Virus record (IMG/VR): IMGVR_UViG_3300044568_006268
Coordinates: 1 to 64,000 of that record
Origin: an uncultured virus (IMG/VR IMGVR_UViG_3300044568_006268)
Lineage: Duplodnaviria > Heunggongvirae > Uroviricota > Caudoviricetes
Reading direction: 5' to 3' (one strand)
Length of the DNA stretch: 64,000 nt
This document shows, piece after piece, positions 27,895 to 63,877 of this stretch. Every line of letters begins with the position of its first letter. Within the stretch, counting starts at the first letter, position 1. The notes below the pieces were generated by a model. The model saw only the letters and a program-made list of their open reading frames with translations, did not search any database and had not been told where the DNA came from. The position numbers were made by a program, and so were the translations under genes.

Positions 27895-30854
<2,960 letters not shown>

Positions 30855-30855
<1 letters not shown>

Positions 30856-31470: not shown

Positions 31471-31899
31471 TTATTGAATTCTTTTAGTTTTGTCTATTAA
31501 TTCAGGAAAAAAGAAGGACACTTCAGTAAGTGCATTTTCATCTGAATCAGAACCATGTATTGCATTCGAGGCTATAGACGAGCCATACATACTACGGATA
31601 GTTCCTGGATTAGCTAATTTAGGGTCAGTATCACCTATCAAAGTTCTAAAATCTTCGATTGCATTTGTTTTTTGTAGTGCAATTGCAACAATCGGTCCAG
31701 AAGTCATGAATTTTATTAGGTCATCGTAGAAATCCTTAGATTTATGAACTGAATAAAATTCCGCAGCTTTATCAGGAGTCAGCATAGTAACTTTCATTCC
31801 TACGGTTTTGAAACCTTCAAAGCTAATTCGTTGTATTAATTGATCTGCCGATGCAAATACATCCGGCTTAATCATGGTCAATGTGTATGTTCCTATCAT
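31471..31899 (-). CDS. ndk: Nucleoside diphosphate kinase
   Basis: MIKPD, FMTSGP, PGTIR, NAIHGSDS motifs. Confidence 0.97.
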   Translation of the reverse strand: MIGTYTLTMIKPDVFASADQLIQRISFEGFKTVGMKVTMLTPDKAAEFYSVHKSKDFYDDLIKFMTSGPIVAIALQKTNAIEDFRTLIGDTDPKLANPGTIRSMYGSSIASNAIHGSDSDENALTEVSFFFPELIDKTKRIQ

Positions 31900-35104: not shown

Positions 35105-35665
35105 TTACATGTTGGCGTCTAGAACTTTTTTGAATGATTTAGCATCAGTAACTTCTTCTCCGTGCAATTCAATAGTTTCTCTATCCAAATTGATGTAGAT
35201 TTCTGAACCTTGATATTTCATATCTAAGATAATAGTGCTGTAGTTTTTTCCAATAGCTGTACCACCACTAATTCTTTTGCCTGCCTTTTCTGCCCATGTA
35301 GCAGCCTTTTTAACTAATGCAGTTGCATAGGAACCTTTACGTTTAGCAAATTCCATGATATTAGAAGGTACAGATGCAGCTTCATTAATTACAGATTCTT
35401 CTACTTTAAAAGTTTTGTTTCCTACTTTAACGGTTTTACCTATCAGATCATCAACACCATAAGGTTTTCCTAATTTGTCTTCGAAAGTTTGATCGTCTGA
35501 CCAATCATCAGGAGTTTGTAAAAGTTTTGCAATCACATCGGCTTTAGAAGACGATTCAGTTCTACCCCAGTTGTCGATAACCTCAGAGTAATAAACTATT
35601 TCGATTGCTCCTTCATTAACTGAAGATTCGTTAATGAATTCGTTGAATGTTTGTAAGTTTTTCAT
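35105..35665 (-). CDS. Putative capsid-internal protein (MKNLQTFNEFINE leader), two domains joined by VINE
   Basis: Leader and internal INE site. Confidence 0.65.
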   Translation of the reverse strand: MKNLQTFNEFINESSVNEGAIEIVYYSEVIDNWGRTESSSKADVIAKLLQTPDDWSDDQTFEDKLGKPYGVDDLIGKTVKVGNKTFKVEESVINEAASVPSNIMEFAKRKGSYATALVKKAATWAEKAGKRISGGTAIGKNYSTIILDMKYQGSEIYINLDRETIELHGEEVTDAKSFKKVLDANM

Positions 35666-36054
35666 TATTGATCGATGAATTCTCCATTTAGGAATCTAAG
35701 TAGAATTTTATCAGTGGGTTGTACATTTAAGTTTCCGTTGATAAAAATCTCATAAGAATCATCAGCATATTTGCCGATGCCATAAAGCTCATTGGCTTTA
35801 GAGAATTTTTTATTTATATATTCATATGAGAACTTAATAATTCGCTGAGTTCTGACGTTATAAAATCCTAGAGTTCGGATATGTTCTCGGATTTCATTTT
35901 CATCGGCATTAAGAACCGATTGTGGACTAGGCCATTTGTCAAAAAATGAGTAAATTACCTTTCTAACATTTTTGTTGCCTGTTTGATTTAACATAATGCA
36001 ACCAATAAGCATTTTCCAGGGATCGTGTTGAAATTCTTGTTGAATAATTGCCAT
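35665..36054 (-). CDS. HhH-GPD DNA glycosylase, MBD4-like
   Basis: HDPWKMLI..MLNQT, LYGIGKYADDSY.IF, QPTD match the MBD4 glycosylase domain. Confidence 0.85.
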   Translation of the reverse strand: MAIIQQEFQHDPWKMLIGCIMLNQTGNKNVRKVIYSFFDKWPSPQSVLNADENEIREHIRTLGFYNVRTQRIIKFSYEYINKKFSKANELYGIGKYADDSYEIFINGNLNVQPTDKILLRFLNGEFIDQ

Positions 36055-36061
36055 ATCTATT

Positions 36062-36700
36062 TTATGCTGATTTTTTTAATTTGATTTTCTTTTCAGGTAC
36101 CGGATTAGGTACATATTGAGAAACTGCTGAATTTACAAACTCCGAAGTCCACCATTCAGGTTGATTATTTAATTTGTTCCAGGAGACATTCATGTACGTC
36201 GTCTTGAACGCATAGTATTTTTTATAAGATATTACAGCATCACTAGATTGATAACAGATTGGCATCGCAGTGGCAAAAGGAGTAAGGCCTTTTGATATAA
36301 TGTTTGGTGGATTTAATTTCATCCAATCAATAATTAATTTAACCGAGTGTGGATTGTTTTTCCATCGATTAAGAAATTCTTGACAAAGTTCTTCTGTGCA
36401 TTCAATTAGCCAATTGAAATTTTCTTTAGATTCTCGAGTCCATATAGTGCATGGATGATTAACGTGACTGATTGCATATGGATGATCTGTGCCATCTGGA
36501 TGCTTTCTAGGCCAGCCTTTAAATATTTTACTAACTGCATCTTGATTTTCTGCAATTTCTTTCTTTTTGGAAATTCCTAACGTATGATAGTATGCAGCTG
36601 CTAACATTTGTGTGTGTTCGATTATCATTTTTGAAATGTGTTTATCGCAATGCATCTGTGCCGCAATTCTAGGATTTTCATCCAATACAAATATGTTCAT
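36062..36700 (-). CDS. Pyrimidine dimer DNA glycosylase / endonuclease V family protein
   Basis: MNIFVLD..P..AA..HCDKH..KM..E..QML, HxNHPC..W; real start at 36700. Confidence 0.8.
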   Translation of the reverse strand: MNIFVLDENPRIAAQMHCDKHISKMIIEHTQMLAAAYYHTLGISKKKEIAENQDAVSKIFKGWPRKHPDGTDHPYAISHVNHPCTIWTRESKENFNWLIECTEELCQEFLNRWKNNPHSVKLIIDWMKLNPPNIISKGLTPFATAMPICYQSSDAVISYKKYYAFKTTYMNVSWNKLNNQPEWWTSEFVNSAVSQYVPNPVPEKKIKLKKSA

Positions 36701-36720
36701 TGTAGTTAATTTATTTAAAG

Positions 36721-36777
36721 TAAAAATAATCAAATTAATTGACAAGAAAAAATAAAGTGAGTAGAAGTTATTAACAA
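36721..36777 (-). promoter_or_regulatory. Promoter unit with GTTATTAAC palindrome
   Basis: Palindrome 36767-36775, 46 bp from the TTATTTTTAC box. Confidence 0.7.
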
Positions 36778-36801
36778 AAAAGGAACTCAATAGAGTTCCT
36801 T
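36776..36801 (-). terminator. Intrinsic terminator
   Basis: AAGGAACTC-TATT-GAGTTCCTT + T run. Confidence 0.8.
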
Positions 36802-36829
36802 AATGTGTGCTTCGATTTGTGTTTGTTAT

Positions 36830-37198
36830 TTAGCTATTTAGCTGTTGGTATTCTCCGGTTGTATCATTTACTTTAGCCAATGAATCAGCATAAAATTTTT
36901 GATATAATTTATCGAATCTTCTATCTATCTCAGATTTGAGATTGTCGATATTATTTTCTGTCGCTAAAGTATATTCTTCGATTCGTCTTCCTCGTTCATC
37001 GATATTAGATATTAAGCTTTCTTCAACTTCATCAATTTTACGTTGAGTGTCGTCGTGTAAGTGGTGCAAATCTAAAATTTGCTTTTCGTGAGTTATGTCG
37101 TTTTTTTGTGCCTTACGTATTCCTCTAACCATCCATATTTGCAGAATGACCAAAAGAGTTGCTAGTACGCTCAACACCGATATTAAAATTGGTTCCAT
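36830..37198 (-). CDS. Single-TM coiled-coil membrane protein
   Basis: Hydrophobic N-terminal helix then heptad-rich region; flanked by 12-bp inverted repeats. Confidence 0.65.
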   Translation of the reverse strand: MEPILISVLSVLATLLVILQIWMVRGIRKAQKNDITHEKQILDLHHLHDDTQRKIDEVEESLISNIDERGRRIEEYTLATENNIDNLKSEIDRRFDKLYQKFYADSLAKVNDTTGEYQQLNS

Positions 37199-37233
37199 GT
37201 GTTTGTGTTTTATTTTTAAATCGAAGCACCAAT

Positions 37234-38379
37234 TTATTTTTTATTCATTTCAAAATCGATCATTTGTTTGATGGTTTCGTGTAATGATATTGTAATTCCT
37301 TTCCATTCTGGATAATCAGTTTTAAATTTAGTCAAATCTGAAATATACCAAATATGGTCACCAATTCGATTGTCTTCTAGAACTGTGAAGTCGTTCCAAT
37401 CTTTATGTTCTGGATTTATTTCTCTTAAGATAGAATTTGCCGAATCGATTGCTTCTAGAATCGAAGTTGAATTTTCTCTACCACCACCTGCATTATAGAC
37501 TGCACCAGGTATAGGGTTGTTATGATATTCTAAGAACATACTTACTAAGTCATCGGAATGGATATTATCTCTAACTTGTTTTCCTTTATAACCAAAGATG
37601 TTGTAATGTTTGTTGTTGACAATACACTTAATCAAATAAGCAAGAAATCCATGAAGTTCTGCACCTTGATGATTTGGTCCGGTTAAACAACCACCTCGAA
37701 ATACAACCGTATTCATACCAAAATATCTGCCATATTCTTGAACCATAATATCAGCAGCTACTTTAGAAGCACCAAAGATTGAATGTTTTGTATGGTCAAT
37801 CGACATAGTTTCGTCTACTTCTATTTGACGAGCAGATAGATTCGAAAGAGCTTCATAACGAGTTTCTTGTTCAACGATGTTTAATCGATTAGGAGTATCA
37901 CCATAAACTTTATTAGTTGATGTGAATATGAATGTAGCAGTTGGACAATATAAACGAGTAAGTTCTAACAGGTTCATTGTACCTATTGCATTTACTGAGA
38001 AGTCAGTCAAAGGTTCTTTTGCTGCCCAATCATGTGAAGGTTGTGCTGCAGTATGTACGATCATTTGAATATCATAAACTTCATGAGATTTGCCGAATAT
38101 TGTAAGTTCGCTATCTTCTAAAGTAAGGCCTTTGAAAATTGTTTCTAATGTTGCATAATCTCGAATATCGATAGACAATGGATTAAAGTTTGTTCCATAA
38201 TCTAATTTCATTTTATTTTCTGATTCTTTCGTAGAAGCATCTTCACCAAAGAAATAAGCTCGCATATCATTATCGATACCAACAACATAATAACCTTCAT
38301 TAATAAGACGTTTAACAGTTTGAGAACCTATCAAACCTGAAGATCCTGTAACAATTGCAGTTTTAACTTTATTTTGCAT
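37234..38379 (-). CDS. NAD-dependent NDP-sugar epimerase (CDP-paratose 2-epimerase-like SDR)
   Basis: TGSSGLIG, HTAAQPSHD, STNKVYGD, FGASK, GKQVRDNIH, RIGDHIWYISD. Confidence 0.9.
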   Translation of the reverse strand: MQNKVKTAIVTGSSGLIGSQTVKRLINEGYYVVGIDNDMRAYFFGEDASTKESENKMKLDYGTNFNPLSIDIRDYATLETIFKGLTLEDSELTIFGKSHEVYDIQMIVHTAAQPSHDWAAKEPLTDFSVNAIGTMNLLELTRLYCPTATFIFTSTNKVYGDTPNRLNIVEQETRYEALSNLSARQIEVDETMSIDHTKHSIFGASKVAADIMVQEYGRYFGMNTVVFRGGCLTGPNHQGAELHGFLAYLIKCIVNNKHYNIFGYKGKQVRDNIHSDDLVSMFLEYHNNPIPGAVYNAGGGRENSTSILEAIDSANSILREINPEHKDWNDFTVLEDNRIGDHIWYISDLTKFKTDYPEWKGITISLHETIKQMIDFEMNKK

Positions 38380-38941
38380 TTTTTATAATTGAGTTTTTAA
38401 TTAAGAGTTTTTCGATTTCTACTATTGATTGTTCAATAGATTTTACAGATGAATCAATTTCGATAAATCGATTTTTCCATTTACCAGAATCCGAATGATT
38501 TTTGTAATAGTCATAATACCAATCGAACGAATCTTTTTGTTTAATAAAGTCGTTTTGAGAATAGATGATTCGATCTTTTGGTTTTCGTTCTACGTATTTT
38601 TCGTATGTAGTTGAAAGATAAATTATGGCAAAATTATTATCAAGGAGTAAATCACTTAATGAATCATCTTCTTTGATTAGAGATTTTCTTTCAAAGAATT
38701 TTGAGTAAACTAATTCAGAAAGAAAAGAACGATCTAAGATGAAAGTTTCTTCAGGAAATGCAGAGTACATCATATTAGCCATCACATGAATTCCGTGATA
38801 GAATTCATGTAAGTTTTCAATACATTCAGGCATTTTGTCTTTTACTGACATTTGACGGAATCCGTATTTTTTAGAAAGTATTTCTGCAATCGAAGATTTT
38901 CCTGTTCGAGAAAGTCCTTCAAGTATAATTAGTTTTGCCAT
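38369..38941 (-). CDS. dNMP kinase (thymidylate kinase-like)
   Basis: IILEGLSRTGKS P-loop; LDRSFLSELVY. Confidence 0.85.
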   Translation of the reverse strand: MAKLIILEGLSRTGKSSIAEILSKKYGFRQMSVKDKMPECIENLHEFYHGIHVMANMMYSAFPEETFILDRSFLSELVYSKFFERKSLIKEDDSLSDLLLDNNFAIIYLSTTYEKYVERKPKDRIIYSQNDFIKQKDSFDWYYDYYKNHSDSGKWKNRFIEIDSSVKSIEQSIVEIEKLLIKNSIIKNAK

Positions 38942-38963
38942 AATTGTTATATGATGAAATCGA

Positions 38964-40253
38964 TTATTTGGTTAAGCAAGTGCGAATATCATTTACAATT
39001 CTATCACATGCAGACTCATATGATTCGTGGTCATATCCTACTTTGTGACATAATTCTCGCATTTGAGTTTCGCCGATAGTGCCAATCGTATGTAATGCAG
39101 TTCTTAATTGATATGCAACATCTTTTACGTCGGGTTTGTGAGTATTAACAGAATCAATTTTCGTGAAGTAAGGATATTCAGCATGACCAGCTTTTATCAT
39201 TTTGTGCAGGTAGTTATTTACTCGAGGAAATACTAAAATGTTTTTTGCCATCATAGCTTCGCAATGAGTTACACCACCATGAACTTCAGTAACAAATAAA
39301 TTACAAGCAATATGGGTTTTGTTGATAAACCTTAAATAATCTTCTCGAGTAAATTTTTCGTTATTTGGCATTACTTCGACGTGACCTTTTGATAAATCAT
39401 TAATCAATTGTAATTGTTCATCAGTTACTTTACGAGTAGGATTTAACATTACAGCTCTGAAAGGTTTGTCGGTGATAGTAGATAAAATTCCAATTGCTTC
39501 GGCAAATGAATCGTAATTAGTGTAACGATTTGCAGTATCTGAAATTCGATTACCAAAGTAAATTGTAGGAATTTCAAATTTTTCATCGTTATGGTATTTT
39601 GCAATTTCTGCATAATGAGCACCTACACCCCATACTGACTGAGGAGCAAGTATTTCTCGAGTTTTAAATAGAATATCATAAGCTTCCATTGCTTCTACTC
39701 TACCAGCTTCACATTGAAATGCAGCAATATCAGATGCAATAAAAGATTCCATTTGTCTTTCGTAATAACGAATTTTCTGCGGAACTTTATTTGCAATAGG
39801 AGAATCTAAGAAATAATTTGTAGAAATGATTTTCACTTCTTTGTTTCCAATAGTTTCAAATGCAACTCGCCAATTTTTTGTTAATGTGTTTTCGTCATTA
39901 ATCATTACATCGACATGAGGAAATCTTACAAGATTTGTTTGATGGTAATCGAAGTTGAAATTGTAACGAGAGGTCACAGGAGAAATAGGAATAATGTCTT
40001 CGTAAATTTGAATTGATGAATGATATTTCTCATCAAATAATTCGTAAATGTCGATCACATCATCGCAATGACCTGCAGGTGGTAATTTTACAATGAAATG
40101 GAATTCGTTAGGATTTTGTTCTAATATGGTTGAAATTATACCAACCGCAATATTAGTACATGCATCGTTTCTTAATAACCATTGAGGATAACCATTTCGA
40201 TTAGTGAAATTAGAAACTTGAATTGCATAAAAGATTGTTGTTTTTTTATTCAT
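38964..40253 (-). CDS. GT-B fold glycosyltransferase
   Basis: IYFGNRIS, REDYLRFI, GGVTHCEAM...P C-terminal GT-B motifs; likely ATG at 40253 (MNKKTTIFY). Confidence 0.7.
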   Translation of the reverse strand: MNKKTTIFYAIQVSNFTNRNGYPQWLLRNDACTNIAVGIISTILEQNPNEFHFIVKLPPAGHCDDVIDIYELFDEKYHSSIQIYEDIIPISPVTSRYNFNFDYHQTNLVRFPHVDVMINDENTLTKNWRVAFETIGNKEVKIISTNYFLDSPIANKVPQKIRYYERQMESFIASDIAAFQCEAGRVEAMEAYDILFKTREILAPQSVWGVGAHYAEIAKYHNDEKFEIPTIYFGNRISDTANRYTNYDSFAEAIGILSTITDKPFRAVMLNPTRKVTDEQLQLINDLSKGHVEVMPNNEKFTREDYLRFINKTHIACNLFVTEVHGGVTHCEAMMAKNILVFPRVNNYLHKMIKAGHAEYPYFTKIDSVNTHKPDVKDVAYQLRTALHTIGTIGETQMRELCHKVGYDHESYESACDRIVNDIRTCLTK

Positions 40254-40257
40254 TAAA

Positions 40258-40983
40258 TTACATTTTAGAATAGTTAATAGTAGAGTGTGGTAGGTTTTGT
40301 ATGTAATCAAAATCCTTTTTGAAAACGTGAGCAGAAACTACAGACGAAGAAAATTTACCTGGTTCAACTTCTAGTTTTTCTGCTAATTCGCAAGTAAATC
40401 GACCCCATAAGTACATATCAAGCTTAAGGACTTGTGCCATATTTTGAGATCGCATATGAACATGAACATTTAGCTTTTCATCTCGGATAAAGAAAGTAGC
40501 AGAATCGGTACATGGAAATTCTAAAGATTCGTTTTTATCTAAAAGATTAAGGTCATCTTTATCGAGAATCATAATGACTGCTCTTCGAGTATCAGGTTTA
40601 TCTCGCAATTCCTTTTCGATTGTAGGTAATTGTGATAAAATACGAGGACCATAGAAGGTATTGAAGTTTTCTGGAAGTTGGTCAGACTTTGGCTTTTCCA
40701 TAAACTTAGTGACGTTTGGATATTTGTCGATAATTTCGGTTGAGTCTGTGCAACCGTTCATCATCCAACGATAAAAGGTATCAGCATAATCATAGTCTAA
40801 TTTACCAATCAACTCGTTCGTAAATTGATAACTGGTTAAATCGAGTACATCATAACTCAATCCTGTAATTTCATGTACTTCACCAATGCGAGAAGTAGTT
40901 TGAAATTCAGGATTGTCTATAATATGCTGAGAAGTTTGTAAGAAAGCTTCTTCAAAAGTTTCAAATGTAGAATATTTGTGCAT
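40258..40983 (-). CDS. Thymidylate-synthase-fold pyrimidine C5-modifying enzyme (dCMP-type, atypical)
   Basis: YGPR, DTRRA, FPCT, MRSQN, SAHVF motifs. Confidence 0.85.
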   Translation of the reverse strand: MHKYSTFETFEEAFLQTSQHIIDNPEFQTTSRIGEVHEITGLSYDVLDLTSYQFTNELIGKLDYDYADTFYRWMMNGCTDSTEIIDKYPNVTKFMEKPKSDQLPENFNTFYGPRILSQLPTIEKELRDKPDTRRAVIMILDKDDLNLLDKNESLEFPCTDSATFFIRDEKLNVHVHMRSQNMAQVLKLDMYLWGRFTCELAEKLEVEPGKFSSSVVSAHVFKKDFDYIQNLPHSTINYSKM

Positions 40984-41015
40984 AAAAAATAGTTTTAAAT
41001 CTTATGCAAAATTTG

Positions 41016-41369
41016 CTATTTTGTATCAAGTAATTTTACTTTAGCAACACAAAGTTTTTCTTTGATTTTATCAGTTTTGATTTTACCAAATCTAGAGAAG
41101 ACCATTCGGGTCATATTAGGATTGATTCTATCCTTAATGATATTATCTAGTTCCTCACCTTTAATATTTGAATAAGTTCTCAATTCAAATCGATCTTCTT
41201 CAATGTGAGTTAACATAATTGAACCGTTCATAAAGAAAAGCCTTTTTGCAGTTTCGAAATCTTGCTTCAAAATGAAGTCGTTCATAAACTCGTTTTTCAT
41301 AGTCTTATTTAGTGTTAAGACTACCAATGATTCGTTAATGAACTCATCGTATTTTTTAAATGTGCTCAT
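41016..41369 (-). CDS. Putative capsid-internal protein (MSTFKKYDEFINE leader)
   Basis: CTS-like leader. Confidence 0.6.
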   Translation of the reverse strand: MSTFKKYDEFINESLVVLTLNKTMKNEFMNDFILKQDFETAKRLFFMNGSIMLTHIEEDRFELRTYSNIKGEELDNIIKDRINPNMTRMVFSRFGKIKTDKIKEKLCVAKVKLLDTK

Positions 41370-41854
41370 TACTTATTTAATTTTACCTCTATGATATTTT
41401 TAGGTCCTTTAGAAATAGTGGCCTTAGGGAATTCATGTTTAATATATTTAGAATAGAGATTAAGTCTAGCTATGTTTGTAGTTTCTCCTTTCTTTTTTGC
41501 TGGTGTAAATACGAGAATATCTACTTCGGGATGTGTACTTAAGTCTTTCTTAATTACATCTACGACGGTTGCCATTACTTTAAATAGTTCTCCCTTATTT
41601 GTTACAATATCATCTCTTTCAATGTCTGGATCTTCATCATCCGGAACATAGAATCTCACAGATAAAACGTTGTTTGCACCTTCATAATCGTCTATGTCGT
41701 CGTATTGTAGTTCTACCGTATATGGATAGCTTGGTGTTTCAAATCCATATATTCTTGCATTGCCATAATCACCATAAAAATCAGGATGATATGCCTTTGA
41801 ACTGGAATCTCCTATTTCGTTTAAGAATTCGTCGTATGATGGTAAATTTTTCAC
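41369..41854 (-). CDS. Putative capsid-internal protein (MKNLPSYDEFLNE leader)
   Basis: CTS-like leader, GTG start. Confidence 0.6.
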   Translation of the reverse strand: MKNLPSYDEFLNEIGDSSSKAYHPDFYGDYGNARIYGFETPSYPYTVELQYDDIDDYEGANNVLSVRFYVPDDEDPDIERDDIVTNKGELFKVMATVVDVIKKDLSTHPEVDILVFTPAKKKGETTNIARLNLYSKYIKHEFPKATISKGPKNIIEVKLNK

Positions 41855-42216
41855 TAGTCTTGTTTTGGTTTTTCGCCTTTACCTTTTAACCAATCGGCAA
41901 CATCAGAATCCGTAGTTTCGTATCCTTTAGTTTTTCTAATGAAAGCATTTAAACGAGCATAACCCCATGCAGTATATGCTGCAGGACCTCTACCAATTTT
42001 TTGAATGTTAGGATTAACAGCACCCCAATTAGTTTCAGCTGCACCATAACCTCTTTTAAAGAGCATAGTTAATGCATCTTCGATTTGAGCAGGAGATCCA
42101 CCAATAGCTTTTTTAGTTTTTGGATCGTTTGCAAGTTCCTTTATTCTATCATCTACTTTGCTATCTTCATTTAATGCAAAATCGACGAATTCGTCGTAAG
42201 TTATTAGATTTTTCAC
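41854..42216 (-). CDS. Putative capsid-internal protein (MKNLITYDEFV..LNE leader)
   Basis: Leader + RGxGA...WxxARxNAF phage domain; GTG start. Confidence 0.6.
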   Translation of the reverse strand: MKNLITYDEFVDFALNEDSKVDDRIKELANDPKTKKAIGGSPAQIEDALTMLFKRGYGAAETNWGAVNPNIQKIGRGPAAYTAWGYARLNAFIRKTKGYETTDSDVADWLKGKGEKPKQD

Positions 42217-42224
42217 TTATTGAA

Positions 42225-43034
42225 TTATTTTGGTGTCCAAATCTTTTGAACTTTTTTATTTATATATTCAATGAGTTCGCTGAAATTAGGATCTAACGCC
42301 TGAGAGTCGAATGATTCTTTATTTGTAGAAAACGAAATCTTACCGTAAACTTCTCGAGTATCTAAATATTGAGATATTCCAGCTTTTCGCAAAGAATCTG
42401 AAAATATAACATACTCATATCTACCAGAATTATCGTCATATATAATATTAGGTAAAACTTCGTTCTTAACAAAGTATGTACAATGTACTACTGGAACTTG
42501 GATTAGTCCTTTATATTTTTGATATAATAATGTAGAGTACATATCATCATTTTCGAAATATCCATTGGTATCTATTGATGAATGGAAATTTGAGTACATA
42601 GAGTTAGAATCTACTGAATGCAATAAAGGTGCTACTACTGGTAAATTAGTGGCCATTAGAGAATTGATAGTATGAGGTTTGATTATATTATCACAATCTG
42701 CGATAAAATAATCTGCCTTTTCGCTCATGGCAAATTGAATAGAGTCTTGTCTAATTGCTCCTAATATTTTAAATCGATGAGTATTCCAATCGTGATTTTC
42801 TACTAACTTTAGGCTTTCATCTATCGATGAATCATCAAATACCATTTTCCATTTCCATTTCCACTTATTGTACCAATCAAATAAAACATTAGCAGTATCG
42901 TCGTTATTGTCGTTTGTTCGAATATAAAATACCGAGTCCCATCCAAGAGCAGTCTGAGCTAACATACTATCTAAATACAATGGTAGTATATGGGCTTTTG
43001 ATTTTGCGATAATAGGAATTACTAATCTACTCAT
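42225..43034 (-). CDS. GT-A glycosyltransferase resembling the COLGALT1 N-terminal domain
   Basis: DCD motif; VVAPLL, YSNF, VPVVHCTY. Confidence 0.8.
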   Translation of the reverse strand: MSRLVIPIIAKSKAHILPLYLDSMLAQTALGWDSVFYIRTNDNNDDTANVLFDWYNKWKWKWKMVFDDSSIDESLKLVENHDWNTHRFKILGAIRQDSIQFAMSEKADYFIADCDNIIKPHTINSLMATNLPVVAPLLHSVDSNSMYSNFHSSIDTNGYFENDDMYSTLLYQKYKGLIQVPVVHCTYFVKNEVLPNIIYDDNSGRYEYVIFSDSLRKAGISQYLDTREVYGKISFSTNKESFDSQALDPNFSELIEYINKKVQKIWTPK

Positions 43035-43450
43035 ATATGTTCTAGAATTTCAAGGTGAGCTTTAATCATTCTAGGTCTAGCCATTTCAAACGGCATAAAA
43101 CCAGCCCAATCAACTTCTGCAGCTTGTAATTGAGACTTAGGTATGATTTCGGATTGTAAACCTATTTGGTCTAATGATTTAATAGGTACAATATAATAAG
43201 TTAACTTCTTCCAGGGTTTTCCTGTTTTAGTTTTGATATAAAATAGCTCCATTTCTGGACCAATCAAATTTCGAGGAACATCAATACCAATTTCCTCTTT
43301 AGTTTCTCTGATTGCTGCTTCTATATTAGTTTCACCGGCATCAACATGACCTTTAGGGATCGAATAGGTTCCATACCATCTTCCATTAGTTGGATGAACT
43401 AATAAAATTTGGTCTTTATAGATTATTGCTAATCCTGACGAATGTTCCAT
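43031..43450 (-). CDS. NUDIX hydrolase
   Basis: GHVDAGETNIEAAIRETKEEIG Nudix box. Confidence 0.93.
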   Translation of the reverse strand: MEHSSGLAIIYKDQILLVHPTNGRWYGTYSIPKGHVDAGETNIEAAIRETKEEIGIDVPRNLIGPEMELFYIKTKTGKPWKKLTYYIVPIKSLDQIGLQSEIIPKSQLQAAEVDWAGFMPFEMARPRMIKAHLEILEHI

Positions 43451-45366
43451 TATTGTTTGATTAAATTTACGATGTCACCATAAGTAACAATTTTAACTCC
43501 TAGCTTTTTAGCTTTTGCAGTTTTAGAAGTAGCAGAATCGATATCGTCAGTAATTAGATATGTTGAATCGGCAGATAAAGAAGTTTGAACATAACCATGA
43601 GGAGCAATTAATTTAACGAATTCCTCTTTAGTTTTAAATCCAAATTCTTTAGGAGAACCAGTCATTTCGAATTTAATTGAATTAGCATCGATTACTGTTT
43701 TAACTTCAGTTTCTATTATATATCCGTTAGCTTTTATCAGGTCGATTAAACGAATTACGGATTGATATTCAGGAGATGATTGATTATAGAAAGGTGCATA
43801 TGCCTCTCTAGATTTTCCTGAGAAATCTGGAGTTCCACCATCGAATAGTTTAGCAATTTGTTCGGATGTAGAGAATCCTACATTTTTAAAAGCTAATGAA
43901 GCAATGATTCGAGGCATTGTAATTGCTTTACGTTTTTCAAATGATTGTAAAATAATTTCTAATGCTCGACCTTTCTTAAAGTAACCTGACTTAATAAGAT
44001 TAGCTTCGTTGAATTTTGTTTTGTCGAATAAATCAAACATGGTTTTAATACCTGCATTATAGAGATTTTCAATAGTAGCACCACCAACATTATCTAATTC
44101 GAATGTACCAATTCCTACTGATAATCGACTAATCAATTGTTCTTTACAATTTGGATTTGTACAAAGTAAATGAACACCATCAATTTCAATTTTACATTCT
44201 AGAGTAGAACATTGAGCAGGTATGTGATCGTTAATGTCTTTAACAAATACTGGAGTGATTACGTGTCTTACGATAGGTATAATATCACCTGATTTTACGA
44301 TTACAACCTTAGCACCAGGAAATAATCCTTTGGTTTGAATATTTCCAAGATTATGTAATGCAACTCTAGAAACAGTAGTTCCATCTAAATCGATAGGTTC
44401 AAGTATACCAACTGGTTTGAATTCACCGGATTGTCCTAAGTTCCATTCGATTCTATTGATATATGTTACTGCTTCGGTTGGTGGAAATTTGATAGCCATT
44501 GCCCATTTAGGGTGATGGTCAGTTTCACCAATTTTGTTTCTTAATTCATGAGGAAATTTAATTACAAAACCATCAAGTCCATATTCACAATCATGAATTC
44601 GGTAATAATGAAACATATTGAAAATAGTTTCGAATTGAGAAGGAAAGAATGTATGAACAAAATCTGGAATAAGAAATCCATTACGTTTAAGTATTTCGAA
44701 TTGTTTAGTCCCATGTTCATAAGCATTATTTTCGTGGATTCGATATTCAAAAGCAATAAAATCAAAATCATTGATTACGCTTAAGTCTTTAATTTCATCT
44801 CGACCTAAGATACCGGCAACAAAGTTACGAGGATTTTTGTAATCCATCGAATATTTTTCGTTGAATAATTTGGTTTTGATAATTACTTCACCACGAATTT
44901 CGATTAAACCTGGAATGTTGATTTCGTTAGGAACGATATGCATTATTTTAGAAGTAATATCAGTTCCATGAGTTCCATTACCTCGAGTAGATGCAGTAAT
45001 TAGCTTACCGTTTTTGTAAGTTAAGTTACATGAAGAACCATCAAATTTAGGTTCAGCTTCTAATTGTAAAGTTTTTTGTAATAATGTACCAGCTGAATTT
45101 GTAGATTTTTCGATCCAATCGTTGAATTTTTGAATCGGTAAAGATTTATCTTCTAAATCGTTTACTTGTGTTTTTTGTAAAGATAACATTGGAGATAGGT
45201 GCTGATTTTCTTTTGAAGTATCATCAGATCCTACTATGTTGATTACGTTTGAACCTTCAGCTCTTAGTAAATCTTCTAATCTATCGAATGCGGTATCGGT
45301 CATTAAAGGATTACCATCGTAGTAAGCTTTCTTAGCGTCTAAATAAAGTTTTTCGTTTGTGTTCAT
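43450..45366 (-). CDS. ligA: NAD-dependent DNA ligase
   Basis: EPKFDG motif I, EIRGE, DGFVIK, AIKF, SGDIIP, Zn finger, C-terminal BRCT. Confidence 0.95.
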   Translation of the reverse strand: MNTNEKLYLDAKKAYYDGNPLMTDTAFDRLEDLLRAEGSNVINIVGSDDTSKENQHLSPMLSLQKTQVNDLEDKSLPIQKFNDWIEKSTNSAGTLLQKTLQLEAEPKFDGSSCNLTYKNGKLITASTRGNGTHGTDITSKIMHIVPNEINIPGLIEIRGEVIIKTKLFNEKYSMDYKNPRNFVAGILGRDEIKDLSVINDFDFIAFEYRIHENNAYEHGTKQFEILKRNGFLIPDFVHTFFPSQFETIFNMFHYYRIHDCEYGLDGFVIKFPHELRNKIGETDHHPKWAMAIKFPPTEAVTYINRIEWNLGQSGEFKPVGILEPIDLDGTTVSRVALHNLGNIQTKGLFPGAKVVIVKSGDIIPIVRHVITPVFVKDINDHIPAQCSTLECKIEIDGVHLLCTNPNCKEQLISRLSVGIGTFELDNVGGATIENLYNAGIKTMFDLFDKTKFNEANLIKSGYFKKGRALEIILQSFEKRKAITMPRIIASLAFKNVGFSTSEQIAKLFDGGTPDFSGKSREAYAPFYNQSSPEYQSVIRLIDLIKANGYIIETEVKTVIDANSIKFEMTGSPKEFGFKTKEEFVKLIAPHGYVQTSLSADSTYLITDDIDSATSKTAKAKKLGVKIVTYGDIVNLIKQ

Positions 45367-45385
45367 ATCGTTTTTAATTATAGAG

Positions 45386-45451
45386 TAAATTTAATCAATT
45401 TTTCCGATACTAGGAAATGTTTTGACAATTATTTACAAAACTTGTTAACAA
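45386..45451 (-). promoter_or_regulatory. Promoter unit (variant palindrome CTTGTTAAC) upstream of ligA
   Basis: TTGATTAAATTTAC box; 55-bp spacing. Confidence 0.6.
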
Positions 45452-45895
45452 TTACTCGTTTCTTGCTATGTCTCTTGACACATCTCTAGATTTAATTGTT
45501 TCTCGTTTATCATATTCTTTTTTACCTTTAGCTAGAAAGATTTCCATTTTGAAAAGTCCTCTTTCATTTTGAAATATTTTATAAGGTACAATTGAGTGGC
45601 CTTTGATGAGGTCCTTTTGTAGCTTTTTAAGTTCTTGTTTTCGCAGCAACAATTTGCGGTTGCAATCCGGTTCGTGACTATTAGGCGAATTCTTTGCAAC
45701 TGGAATATGAAGGCCTCTGACGTAAAGCTCATCATTCTCAAAAATACAATAAGTATCAGTAAGTCCAGCTAATCCTAGTCGAATAGATTTTACTTCACTG
45801 CCTTTTAATTGTATACCTGCAATTTCTGACCTCAATAAGTGATAATCAAATTTAGCTTTTCGATTGATGACGTTTACGTCTTTGACTTTTTTCAT
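45452..45895 (-). CDS. smpB: SsrA-binding protein SmpB
   Basis: NRKAKFDY, AGIQLKGSEVKSIR, RKLLL, AKGKKEYDKRETIK. Confidence 0.96.
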   Translation of the reverse strand: MKKVKDVNVINRKAKFDYHLLRSEIAGIQLKGSEVKSIRLGLAGLTDTYCIFENDELYVRGLHIPVAKNSPNSHEPDCNRKLLLRKQELKKLQKDLIKGHSIVPYKIFQNERGLFKMEIFLAKGKKEYDKRETIKSRDVSRDIARNE

Positions 45896-46368
45896 TATTT
45901 TAAAAATTTTCTAATTGATGAATTTAATCTCTCTAGATGTTCTTCATTTTGCAAACCAGCAAATTTCGTAACATTATCAGATATAAAAGGAATACAAATC
46001 TTTTTATTAAATACTTCTGCACCTATCCATTCAAGAATAGTGTCTAATTGAGTTATTCCTAAAATATTACCAAATGAGGTATTTGATGTACCTATTAGCA
46101 ATATGTTGGTTCCTTTAAGTGTTGATGGATATCCGGAATTATCTATCAATTGCTTAAACATATAAGGAAATGATCCGTTCCATTCAGGAACTATCATAAT
46201 GATATGTGTGAAATCTTTCATGTTAGGAATATCATCAGTAGCATTTGCTAAAGTAATAATACTTGTCGCACCTTTAAATATTTCGTATTGTATGAAAGAC
46301 TCACAACCTAAGGACAGCTTATAATTTAAGCCGTCCTTTGATGATTGTGTGAGTATGAGTATTTTCAT
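45895..46368 (-). CDS. NADPH-dependent FMN reductase (flavodoxin fold)
   Basis: PEWNGSFPYMFKQLID motif. Confidence 0.85.
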   Translation of the reverse strand: MKILILTQSSKDGLNYKLSLGCESFIQYEIFKGATSIITLANATDDIPNMKDFTHIIMIVPEWNGSFPYMFKQLIDNSGYPSTLKGTNILLIGTSNTSFGNILGITQLDTILEWIGAEVFNKKICIPFISDNVTKFAGLQNEEHLERLNSSIRKFLK

Positions 46369-52372: not shown

Positions 52373-55354
52373 ATGCCAACAGCAAATTACCCTAATAATC
52401 AAGATTATCGTTTAAATAAGACTCGTCCTCTTACATGGAAAGAAATGGACGATATGTTCAGAAAACCAAATATTTGGATTGGAGATTTTAGTTACGTTCA
52501 AGGAATGGTCGTGATGTGGGATGATTCAGTTCCACCAGTTAATAATGGAGATGATGGAACTTTATCTTTTTGGTTATGTGATTCCGATCACGTATCTTCC
52601 AATACTAATACTCCAGGAATATTAAATAGTCCATGGAGAAGAATAGGTGGATTAAGTGTTCCAGGACCTACAGGAGAATCGGGTGGTCCTATAGGACCTA
52701 CTGGAATGACCGGTGCTACTGGTAGAACTGGAATGACAGGTGCAACAGGTTCTACTGGAATGACTGGTGCGGTTGGACAAACTGGTGCTACTGGACAAAC
52801 TGGAATGACTGGTGCTGTTGGACCTACCGGAGTTGGTTTACCCGGATCTAAAGGTGATACTGGAAATATTGGTGCTACAGGAATGACTGGGTTAGTAGGA
52901 CCAACTGGAGCAGGAGTAACTGGTGCTACTGGACAAACTGGACAAACTGGACCTACCGGTTTCAACGGACAAACTGGTCCTACAGGAATGACTGGTGCAG
53001 GAGAAACCGGTGCTACAGGAATGACAGGAATGACAGGTGCTACTGGAATGACAGGACCTATAGGACCTACTGGTGCAAATGGAATCCCGATGGGTAAACC
53101 ATCTGATGCATTAGATATGTATTACGATGATGATCCGTCTTCACAAGGTTGTAATCCTGGTGATCCGCTCAAACTATCGTTTGATGTAGTACGAACTGGA
53201 GTTACTTCACTTGCATATGTAGTAGATAATTCCGGTATTTCGACTGCAGGAGGTACAAAAATATTAATACAAAAAGAAGGAAATTATTTTATATCGGTAA
53301 ATGTTAATATAAAAATTCTAACTCCGGTCGACGGTAGAGCCGAAGTTTCTTTAAATTTATATTATGATGATACCTCTGGAAGCTATACTAAATTCGACGG
53401 ATTTCAAGGAAATGTTATATTAGATGCAGAAGGTTTAACTCCAACTGGAACATTAAAAGATTCTATTATGATTCAAGGAATTTTTAATGTAGATGCTAGT
53501 TGGATTTCTTCAAACAGAAAAATATATGCCGTATTAGAAAATGCTGCAGCAGGAATTTCTCTTTCATCCATCGTCGTATCACCTATTTCTACTTCATTAT
53601 CTATCATCTCGTTAGAAGGTGGAATTGGTGCTACTGGAGCAGGAGTTGCTGGACAAACTGGTGCTACTGGTATGACTGGATTAGTTGGACCAACTGGAGC
53701 AGGTCAAACTGGTGCTACTGGACAAACTGGTGCTACCGGAGAAACTGGAATGACAGGTGCTACTGGAATGACTGGTCCTACTGGTGCTGGACAAACTGGT
53801 GCTACCGGAATGACTGGTCCTACTGGTCTAGGGTACGATCTTACTTCTTCAATATCTGCTACTGCTGGATTAGGGGTAAAAGTTTTTACCGTAAATAAAG
53901 ATGCATCTCTTTCTGCATTTTCCATTGGAAACCGAGTAAGAGTAAGTTCATCTTTCGTAATTTGGATGGAGGGAGAGATAACATCATATGCAGGAAATAC
54001 CTTAATTGTGAATGTTGATAAAGTAGTTGGTAGTGGTGCTTCTGCGAGTAGTTGGGATATCGACATTGCTGGACTTCCTGGACCTACTGGAATGACTGGA
54101 ATGACTGGTGCTACTGGAAGAACTGGTAGTACAGGAATGACTGGTGCTACTGGAAGAACTGGTAGTACAGGAATGACTGGAGCTCAAGGTCCTATCGGAC
54201 CAGCAGGACCATTTGGTGCTACTGGTATGACTGGATTAGTTGGACCAACTGGATCAGGCACTACATTTATTCATGAAACTGCTACTTTCGTAGATCCTAA
54301 CGGTAGCAACAGTACTGGTGCAGTAGGAGATAAACAAAAACCATTTTTGACGATAGAAGAAGCAATAGGTCAAGCTCGTTCACGAGCAAACGAACAAGGC
54401 GGACCATTTACTATCATCGTATATCCGGGTATTTATGAGGAAAACAAGCAATGGAATTTTGAAAACGACGAAGGAACTATTAAATTTATCGGTCAAGTTT
54501 ATATAGAATTTGATAACCCAAACCCGGTAGATTATTTTATCAAAATGAGTAATTCGTATATTAATTTCGTTGGAGATGACCGAGGGACGAATAATTTCCA
54601 AATTGGCGGTACTTGTAATACTGGAACATATTTAACCATATCTAGTAAATTCGGTACTAATGTGTATTTATTCGATGTTCGAAATACTAAACTTAAACTA
54701 TCAAATATTACAATAGATACAGGATTTTTAGGAAAATTTGGAGTAGATTGGAAATACCCCGGTGGTGGTAGTAAAGTAGATATTGATAATTGTAGAATGA
54801 GATCTATTATACATCCTAATATCGAGGTTTCTGCCGACGGCGCAGTTGATGGTCTTTCTAGATTACCAGATATATTAATTAGAGATTCAATTCTAGCATC
54901 GGCTTTTGGACCTAATATTGGATATTATGCATTTACTAATGGTTTAGAATCTGAAGCTACTTTATTGATTGATAATAGCACAATCTATCAAGATCCTACC
55001 TATGGAGGTTTAGGTAAATTAACACCTGGATTTCCAACTCCAGTAGGAGGAAAATTACCTCACGTAGACAGTTTCATATATTCAACGATGAATCTGGATA
55101 ACCAATTAAGGTTGATATTTTCTGGGACGAAATTCCATATGAACAAATGGTCTCCACCAGCAGAAGGAAGTGGTGGACCTGAAGCTTGCGTACATTTTGA
55201 TAATTCTGGAAATGATTTCAAACATGACACGATGTCAACTTACACTAATACTCGAAATTTTTTAGGAGCCAGCATCTGGACTCATGTAGTTGACCATATA
55301 ACGGAGTTAAAAGGTAGTACGAAATCTCCAATTGAATATATGAACATACTTTAA
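52373..55354 (+). CDS. Collagen-like fibre protein B (paralog of A) with C-terminal beta-helix domain
   Basis: Shared [24 protein letters not shown]-terminus; G-x-T tracts; FVDPNG..G...[17 protein letters not shown] pectin-lyase-like start. Confidence 0.85.
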
Positions 55355-63501: not shown

Positions 63502-63592
63502 ATACAACAAAAGCTCAATCTTACGATTAAGCTTTATCGAAGGTATATTAGGCCATACCAATAACCAGGACCTTTTCCCTAGGGAAATGTCG

Positions 63593-63675
63593 TGACCAAA
63601 GAGGGACTCGAACCCTCACGCTCAAAGAGCACCAGCTTCTTAGACTGGCGTGTCTACCAATTCCACCACTCGGCC
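63593..63675 (-). tRNA. tRNA-Leu (anticodon AAG), long variable arm
   Basis: GGCCGAG..GGUAGACACG CCAGU CU-AAG-AA GCUGG, variable arm GCUC/GAGC, GGUUCGAGUCCC, A73. Confidence 0.85.
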
Positions 63676-63679
63676 GTAA

Positions 63680-63800
63680 TGAGCAATCCTATGGAATTAC
63701 TGCAGTTTATCCAAAGGTCGTATATAGCTTGCAGACTAAGATTCTGCTGGATTTTCACCTTCATAAAGCTGGATATCAACGACCCTTATCGCGATTCTCA
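63680..63800 (-). ncRNA. Unclassified structured RNA between two tRNAs
   Basis: Nested helices UGAG-AAUC/GAUU-G-CUCA, AAGGGUCGU/ACGACCUUU, AGCUU/AAGCU, GCAGA/UCUGC. Confidence 0.55.
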
Positions 63801-63803
63801 TTG

Positions 63804-63877
63804 TACCCGAGATGGGACTCGAACCCACACTGTACAGGGTTTAAGTCTGATGCCTCTTCCAATTGGGCTACCCGGGC
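63804..63877 (-). tRNA. tRNA-Leu (anticodon UAA), short variable loop
   Basis: GCCCGGG/CUCGGGU-A acceptor, CU-UAA-AC loop, GUGGGUUCGAGUCCCAU T arm. Confidence 0.8.

Follow-up and report, generated by a model that had tools for sequence, protein, structure and literature searches.

An open reading frame (ORF) on the minus strand of a 64-kb stretch of DNA from an uncultured virus (the window), at positions 40258..40983, begins with ATG and encodes a 241-aa protein. With a probability of about 0.85, we assign this protein as a flavin-dependent dCMP 5-hydroxylase (5-hydroxy-dCMP, or 5hodCMP, synthase) built on the thymidylate synthase (TS) fold. The putative assignment is based on sequence, namely a match to Pfam family PF00303, matches to the solved structures 9iqu/9iqc, a signature of active site residues, and the position of the protein in a phylogenetic tree. 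The enzyme family itself is already in print (2026), and the new elements are contextual: an uncultured clade of jumbo phages, a different set of glycosyltransferase and sugar-donor genes, a linked flavin mononucleotide (FMN) reductase, and a short-chain dehydrogenase/reductase (SDR) without its catalytic Tyr.

The window is the first 64 kb of the IMG/VR virus record G000 (129,487 bp). The same sequence is contained in a longer record, G001, of 294,034 bp with a CheckV completeness of 91%, and the source of the window is a large uncultured (jumbo) phage with a genome of ~294 kb. No near-identical DNA for window positions 36000-46000 was found in cultured phages.

Residue signature of the TS-fold protein

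The 241-aa protein matches the Pfam family Thymidylat_synt (PF00303; E 2.6e-10, 40.3 bits versus a cut-off of 24.3) and phrog_160, 'thymidylate synthase' (E 1.4e-34), and contains the segments LEFPCTDS and MRSQNMAQVLKLD / HMRSQNMAQVLKLD. It was aligned by MAFFT with 119 metagenomic relatives, each at least 65% identical, to give a query clade of 120 rows, and with RB69 gp48 (ORF048c), Bp7 gp145, DLP1_078, RHph_N34 gp135, the homologue from locus L008, T4 gp42, and E. coli ThyA as references. Residue positions were mapped to E. coli ThyA numbering, and the counts given below refer to the 120 query-clade rows.

The initial annotation had described a TS-fold enzyme that keeps the Cys nucleophile, the phosphate-binding Arg and Ser residues, and an Asp selecting dCMP, and that lacks two residues of folate chemistry; the alignment bears out each of these points. 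The catalytic Cys of the FPCT motif (ThyA C146, query C158), the phosphate-binding pairs R126/R127 and R166/S167 (query R133/R134 and R178/S179), and an Asp at the N177 position (query D189), as expected for dCMP specificity, are present in 120/120 rows. D169 is replaced by Asn (query N181) and L143 by Glu (query E155), again in 120/120 rows, and the E58 equivalent is Phe in 119 rows (query F70) and Tyr in one. The loss of folate-site residues is wider than had been listed, extending to W80, which is Thr, Ala, or Ser in the query clade (query T92), and to W83, which is Met, Leu, or Val (Met in the query), while W61 is kept as W73. Further changes in the query clade relative to ThyA are G173 to Val, H147 to Thr or Cys, Y209 to Phe, and R21 to Ser.

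The E58 site can be aligned in two ways. A pairwise HMMER alignment to MilA introduces a 2-residue gap and pairs the Glu of E58 with D68 of the query, from which E58 would be merely swapped conservatively for Asp. This reading was rejected because position 68 is not conserved (Asp in 78, Asn in 24, Ser in 9, Glu in 4, and Lys in 3 of the 120 rows, and His in the Rhizobium-phage type). As judged from the aligned sequences, the E58 site is without a conserved carboxylate under either the MAFFT or the HMMER/MilA alignment.

The canonical ThyA residues N177, D169, E58, W80/W83, and H147 read Asp, Asn, Phe, Thr/Met, and Thr in the query, which ends ~30 residues short of the ThyA C-terminus in the alignment and lacks the C-terminal folate lid. 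The scores of the query against the NCBIfam ThyA equivalog models are all far under their cut-offs. The combination of D169N, N177D, L143E, and Cys146 is present in 51/51 rows of the 5-hydroxycytosine (5hoC) type, loci and references included.

Relationship to published dCMP hydroxylases

The best solved relatives of the query are the PDB entries 9iqu/9iqc/9ir2 (E 1.4e-72 over query residues 3-230), all labelled 'Thymidylate synthase', whose printed sequence is almost identical to RB69 gp48 (ORF048c). Since such a value was obtained with solved chains, the TS fold of the query is not in doubt. MilA (E 5e-10), T4 gp42 (E 8.6e-7), and ThyA (E ~1e-4) are weaker solved relatives. A tblastn search of cultured phages gave 624 matching records, every one under 60% identity, and the best matches were to Dhakavirus, Mosigvirus, and Acinetobacter T4-like phages at 47-52%, with 48.9% identity to RB69 ORF048c and 51.5% to Bp7. 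The identity to RHph_N34 gp135, which represents the Rhizobium-phage type, is only ~29%.

A maximum-likelihood tree was calculated for 29 rows, with most near-duplicate T4-like loci left out. In this tree the 5hoC-type rows are separated from gp42 and ThyA with support of 99/96, the branches of gp42 and ThyA being long. The query clade (seven rows) has support of 98/96 and is sister to a clade of RB69 gp48 and DLP1 with weaker support (88/67), and the Rhizobium-phage type branches outside both of these clades.

In the work of Lee et al. (NAR 2026; PMC13326640), RB69 gp48 and DLP3 gp80 were reported to convert dCMP to 5-hydroxy-dCMP, with the hydroxyl oxygen derived from 18O2. FMN co-purified loosely and was lost during purification of RB69 gp48. 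D169N was proposed as the diagnostic residue, and nine more D169N homologues, including those of Shewanella phage Thanatos and Rhizobium phage RL38JI, all yielded 5-hydroxydeoxycytidine (5hodC) in vivo, not 5-hydroxymethyldeoxycytidine (5hmdC). For a crystal structure of the flavin-bound HY126 enzyme and its in vitro reconstitution, the same paper cites He et al. (Nat Chem Biol 2026).

Because of the D169N signature, the E value of 1.4e-72, the identity of ~49-51%, and the position in the tree, we consider the query to be a member of this already published kind of enzyme. The residue signature and the clustering with the enzymes of Lee et al. also support the earlier proposal that C5 of dCMP is activated and receives a group which does not come from folate, hydroxylation having been named first. 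The enzymes of the RB69 gp48, DLP3 gp80, and PDB 9iqc type have, in common with the query, the TS fold, a similar length (234-241 aa), Cys146, N177D, D169N, L143E, and the loss of E58, W80, and W83. The query nevertheless lies in a separate, well-supported clade of uncultured phages, and its genome is ~294 kb as compared with ~170 kb for the T4-like phages.

Alternative functions

A flavin-dependent C5 hydroxylase of the same family could act on another cytosine substrate, such as CMP, dCTP, or cytosine in nucleic acid, or could serve a product other than DNA, like the nucleoside metabolite of MilA. MilA is a CMP-specific TS homologue and the next-best solved relative of the query, and the sugar specificity of the nucleotide site is not readable from sequence. 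However, the phosphate-binding Arg residues are conserved, and a thymidylate-kinase-like (Tmk-like) kinase, a nucleoside diphosphate kinase (NDK), and a glycosyltransferase (all described below) are arranged as in the phages for which Lee et al. (PMC13326640) give glycosyl-5hoC in virion DNA. We therefore regard a different substrate or product as improbable.

Even less probable is a folate-dependent hydroxymethylase for dCMP like T4 gp42, in which attack by Cys would be followed by methylene transfer from methylenetetrahydrofolate and hydration to 5-hydroxymethyl-dCMP. The fold, the Cys nucleophile, and the phosphate-binding Arg/Ser are shared by the query with both gp42 and E. coli ThyA, and N177D and an acidic residue at position 143 are shared with gp42; the phage encodes a dihydrofolate reductase (DHFR), and many database records annotate homologues of the query as 'dCMP hydroxymethylase'. 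But gp42 retains Asp, Glu, and Trp in the columns of D169 (gp42 D171), E58 (gp42 E60), and W80, where the query has N181, F70, and T92, and no member of the query clade (120 rows) has kept any of these three residues or W83, which gp42 also retains. The match of the query to gp42 (E 8.6e-7) is far weaker than that to 9iqu/9iqc/9ir2, homologues with the same signature gave 5hodC and not 5hmdC according to Lee et al., and the phage has a canonical ThyA to explain the DHFR. As a dCMP 5-hydroxylase, the query would add a hydroxyl rather than the one-carbon unit added by gp42 and ThyA.

A degenerate, non-catalytic TS homologue, kept to bind nucleotides or as a component of a complex for dNTP synthesis, is scarcely credible in spite of the loss of several residues essential in ThyA, as the substitutions in the query are those of active hydroxylases, an alignment of 26 sequences with 64-96% identity has ~100 invariant positions, the Cys and every phosphate ligand among them, and 328 relatives of the protein pass E 1e-3.

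The linked FMN reductase

A small NAD(P)H:FMN reductase of 157 aa is encoded on the minus strand at 45895..46368, 4.9 kb upstream of the TS gene. It matches Pfam FMN_red (E 4.6e-6, 26.7 bits versus a cut-off of 24), and its AlphaFold2 model (pLDDT 90.4) matches FerB, ChrR, ArsH, SsuE, and MsuE in Foldseek at E 2.5e-8 and weaker.

We scanned 49 loci, each covering the TS gene +/- 10 kb, with phmmer (L019 is the window phage). The TS homologue has a homologue of the FMN reductase no more than 10 kb away in 8/8 query-clade loci (L019-L025 plus L059, of which L021 and L022 are near-duplicates) and in 0/41 other loci, the T4-like loci among them. The eight include L024 and L025, which carry arabinose genes in place of the glycosyltransferase found in the window, and in L024 the reductase and TS genes are direct neighbours in divergent orientation. 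When the FMN reductase was used in turn for a reciprocal scan, five loci were obtained, with a TS gene in four; one of these, L071, pairs the reductase with a divergent TS homologue placed on another part of the tree. The initial annotation had noted the DHFR and the FMN reductase as compatible with its proposal, not as evidence. The reductase proves to be genomically linked to the TS homologue in every locus of the clade, and the DHFR is better explained by the canonical ThyA.

Two-component flavin monooxygenases pair an oxygenase with an FMN reductase of the SsuE/MsuE type. By analogy, the small flavodoxin-fold reductase encoded near an oxygenase that would bind flavin loosely is suggestive of a phage-borne two-component monooxygenase, as far as their co-occurrence can indicate. 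The oxygenase would here have a TS fold, not a TIM-barrel or acyl-CoA-dehydrogenase fold, and the coupling is putative.

By tblastn, the FMN reductase had no match in 50,697 cultured-phage records. In the literature from 2024 that we searched, no phage FMN reductase was tied to a 5-hydroxycytosine pathway, although He et al. and Mahler et al. may bear on this point, and flavin or FMN reductase terms were not found in the supplement of Lee et al. (PMC13326640).

Two other genes may be mentioned here. A second, longer protein of the FMN_red family (247 aa, E 3.8e-7) is encoded at G000 112778-113521 on the minus strand (L004:9479-10222). In RB69, ORF050c (L016:5532-6701), just upstream of the TS homologue, is a member of the Peptidase_U32 family (E 7.4e-11), some members of which hydroxylate pyrimidines of rRNA and tRNA at C5 independently of oxygen. 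Such a gene directly precedes the TS homologue in many T4-like phages, and homologues of ORF050c occur in L029, L032-L041, L043, L048, L060, and L064. The window phage has no gene of the ORF050c type and no U32-family neighbour, and the FMN reductase is present instead.

Glycosyltransferase, kinase, and sugar genes

Three genes follow the TS gene on the minus strand. The first, at 38964..40253, encodes a candidate GT-B glycosyltransferase of 429 aa (GT429), which may be the first sugar transferase acting on 5-hydroxycytosine. The ORF list starts it at a TTG at 40310, overlapping the TS gene (a 448-aa ORF); a start at the ATG at 40253, 4 nt past the TS stop, is likelier. GT429 itself has no Pfam, NCBIfam, or PDB-sequence match, and the 448-aa ORF has no tblastn match in cultured phages; in this it differs from the glycosyltransferase of the RB69 type. 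The representative library contains 102 relatives of GT429, and among 70 that were aligned, 8 match Glycos_transf_1, 5 match QTMAN_N, and 3 match Glyco_transf_4. The AlphaFold2 model (pLDDT 96.5) resembles the retaining GT-B enzymes MshA, BshA, GlgM, sucrose-phosphate synthase, and OtsA in Foldseek (E ~1e-12) as well as viral glycosyltransferases. The candidate is thus named only through its relatives and its predicted fold. The same kinds of structural matches are listed for DLP3 gp79 and RB69 gp46:47 by Lee et al. (PMC13326640), and the position of GT429 is that of the first glycosyltransferase in RB69, DLP1, and RHph_N34. The initial annotation had also mentioned an NDP-sugar as a possible electrophile for the TS-fold enzyme, which is not needed when a separate glycosyltransferase follows the gene. 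Upstream of the start codons of the TS gene (40984-41015) and of the glycosyltransferase gene (40254-40257) the sequence is A/T-rich and a Shine-Dalgarno-like purine run is not visible; start sites without such a run are common in Bacteroidota phages.

The second gene (38369..38941) encodes a thymidylate-kinase-like nucleotide kinase of 190 aa, a probable 5hodCMP kinase judging from its gene order and its matches to phrog_761 (E 1.2e-16) and to Pfam Thymidylate_kin (E 3e-5, under its cut-off). The TS homologue adjoins a glycosyltransferase and a Tmk-like kinase here and in RB69, DLP1, and RHph_N34. The third gene (37234..38379) encodes an extended SDR of 381 aa (SDR381), which resembles CDP-tyvelose/paratose 2-epimerases and may remodel the NDP-sugar donor. 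It matches Pfam Epimerase (E 3.3e-35), its closest PDB entry is 1orr, CDP-tyvelose 2-epimerase (E 4.2e-29), and its relatives carry the JGI label 'CDP-paratose 2-epimerase'. In the YxxxK motif, the FGASK of SDR381 aligns with YGCSK of CDP-tyvelose 2-epimerase and YGKSK of GalE, so that the catalytic Tyr of YGxSK is replaced by Phe; this holds in 120/120 closest relatives and in 6/6 locus orthologues. A conserved K-H-S precedes the Phe. A second SDR, present in L020 and L059, retains the catalytic Tyr.

The pair of GT429 and SDR381 was found in six loci (L019, L020-L023, and L059), and the arabinose genes (homologues of RB69 ORF055c, 052c/053c, and 051c) in L024, L025, and the T4-like loci. In L019, which extends 10 kb to either side of the TS gene, phmmer gave no match to RB69 ORF055c, 053c, 052c, or 051c, and the arabinose-5-phosphate isomerase, bifunctional kinase/uridylyltransferase, and HAD phosphatase which mark an arabinosyl-5hoC cluster, and which distinguish the clusters of RB69 (gp45-55) and DLP3 (gp76-83), are lacking there. 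In the whole 294-kb record, neither a sugar-1-phosphate nucleotidyltransferase (NTP_transferase) nor a further Glycos_transf_1 gene was found. With no arabinose genes at the locus and no nucleotidyltransferase in the record, we infer that the donor is an NDP-sugar of the host, remodelled before its transfer; the sugar on 5-hydroxycytosine would not be made here by the published arabinose route.

RHph_N34 gp135 was used as a stand-in for the type of Rhizobium phage RL38JI (Pootjesviridae), in which DNA carries hexosyl (galactose/glucose) 5hoC and the 5hodCMP synthase has the same residue signature as the query. The gene order in RHph_N34, with the TS gene followed by genes for an unnamed protein of ~340 aa and a kinase-like protein, is as in the window, and a hexose rather than arabinose chemistry is plausible for both the window phage and the Rhizobium type. 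The RHph_N34 protein in the glycosyltransferase position had no phmmer match to GT429, and no UDP-galactopyranose mutase was seen in the annotated parts of the window phage.

A GT25-like glycosyltransferase of 269 aa is encoded upstream of the TS gene (42225..43034, minus strand) and matches procollagen galactosyltransferase 1 in the PDB (E 1.7e-19). In L023 and L025, as in the window, a gene of this type lies within or next to the TS cluster. The phage also has three collagen-repeat proteins (27895-30855, minus strand; 52373-55354, plus strand; and G000 95722-96879, minus strand), and the GT25-like protein may be a second DNA sugar transferase or a glycosyltransferase for collagen fibres as in giant viruses.

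Proposed pathway

Cys158 would add to C6 of dCMP, with Asp189 selecting cytosine, as the conserved residues suggest. The activated C5 would then be oxygenated by a reduced-flavin/O2 species occupying the place where ThyA binds folate, following the literature on the homologues, and the FMN reductase, given its co-occurrence, probably supplies FMNH2. The adjacent Tmk-like kinase and the NDK of the phage would phosphorylate the resulting 5hodCMP, which would then enter DNA in place of C. The fold and gene order point to the GT-B enzyme as placing a sugar on the 5-hydroxyl, with a donor that is probably a host NDP-hexose remodelled by the SDR. The outcome would be DNA containing glycosyl-5-hydroxycytosine and resistant to host nucleases.

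More broadly, we propose tentatively, giving it somewhat less than an even chance, that an abundant clade of uncultured jumbo phages makes an undescribed glycosyl-5-hydroxycytosine. In such a system the phage's own FMN reductase would feed the TS-fold hydroxylase, GT429 would represent a new GT-B family of DNA glycosyltransferases, a conserved epimerase-like SDR without the catalytic Tyr would take part, and a hexose or deoxyhexose would take the place of arabinose as the sugar, which a GT25-like enzyme might extend.

Several points weigh against the proposed function and pathway. The query is only ~50% identical to the assayed enzymes, and FMN binding and O2-dependent hydroxylation of dCMP at C5 are known for the homologues only and would hold for the query by analogy. 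No IMGVR or UViG identifiers that would place any of the nine tested homologues in this clade were found in the supplement of Lee et al. The two-component reading is not proven because these are related loci in which the two genes are only loosely linked: the reductase and TS genes are 2-6 kb apart except in L024, and their linkage may reflect only shared phage ancestry. In L068, a 15.7-kb contig, the FMN reductase is present and a TS gene was not seen. The lack of a sugar-1-phosphate nucleotidyltransferase in the 294-kb record is a further such point, and the role of SDR381 with the sugar donor is uncertain because the catalytic Tyr is absent.

If the assignment is correct, the switch from folate to flavin in the TS superfamily reaches past the T4-like and Rhizobium phages into large uncultured phages, and the D169N signature picks out such enzymes from sequence alone. 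The neighbouring genes point to a further sugar on 5-hydroxycytosine, and the linked FMN reductase bears on the source of reduced flavin for the hydroxylase, a question left open in the published work. Hypermodified DNA of the glycosyl-5-hydroxycytosine kind would decide which restriction, CRISPR, and type IV systems the phage escapes or triggers.

Nucleotide metabolism and other features of the phage

The window also encodes a DHFR, a dCMP deaminase, and the NDK (31471..31899, minus strand, 142 aa; Pfam NDK E 1.9e-45), which would carry out the last step to the triphosphate. A canonical ThyA is encoded at G001 189746-190981 on the minus strand (L010, L011), where it is matched over Pfam positions 1-155 and 159-264, with a MazG gene nearby; ThyX was considered as a source of dTMP, and none was found in G001 or G002. 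With the canonical ThyA in G001, which also accounts for the dCMP deaminase in the window, the DHFR is taken to serve ordinary dTMP synthesis and not the enzyme at 40258..40983. The canonical ThyA is a single open frame of 434 aa, with ~64 residues inserted between Pfam positions 155 and 159, right after the region of the catalytic Cys. A NUDIX hydrolase of 139 aa (43031..43450, minus strand; Pfam NUDIX E 5.1e-14) is a candidate (d)NTP pyrophosphatase that might feed dCMP; its match to the NCBIfam pyrimidine (d)NTP diphosphatase is weak (E 2.3e-4).

The phage record has a G+C content of ~33% and its genes are nearly all on the minus strand. An array of 35 tRNA genes extends from 63.6 to 71.3 kb (window 63592-63877 and G000 64044-71268). 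SmpB is encoded at window 45452-45895 (minus strand, E 4.7e-43), and an ARAGORN scan of 83 kb gave no tmRNA. A GAF-PAS-PAS histidine kinase of 641 aa is encoded at G000 99517-101886 on the minus strand (L003:16058-18427), followed by a response-regulator receiver protein. Finally, a short protein resembling HhH-GPD base-excision glycosylases (129 aa, E 5.7e-12) is encoded at window 35665-36054 on the minus strand, 1.2 kb downstream of the modification cluster, and could be relevant to telling modified from unmodified DNA.

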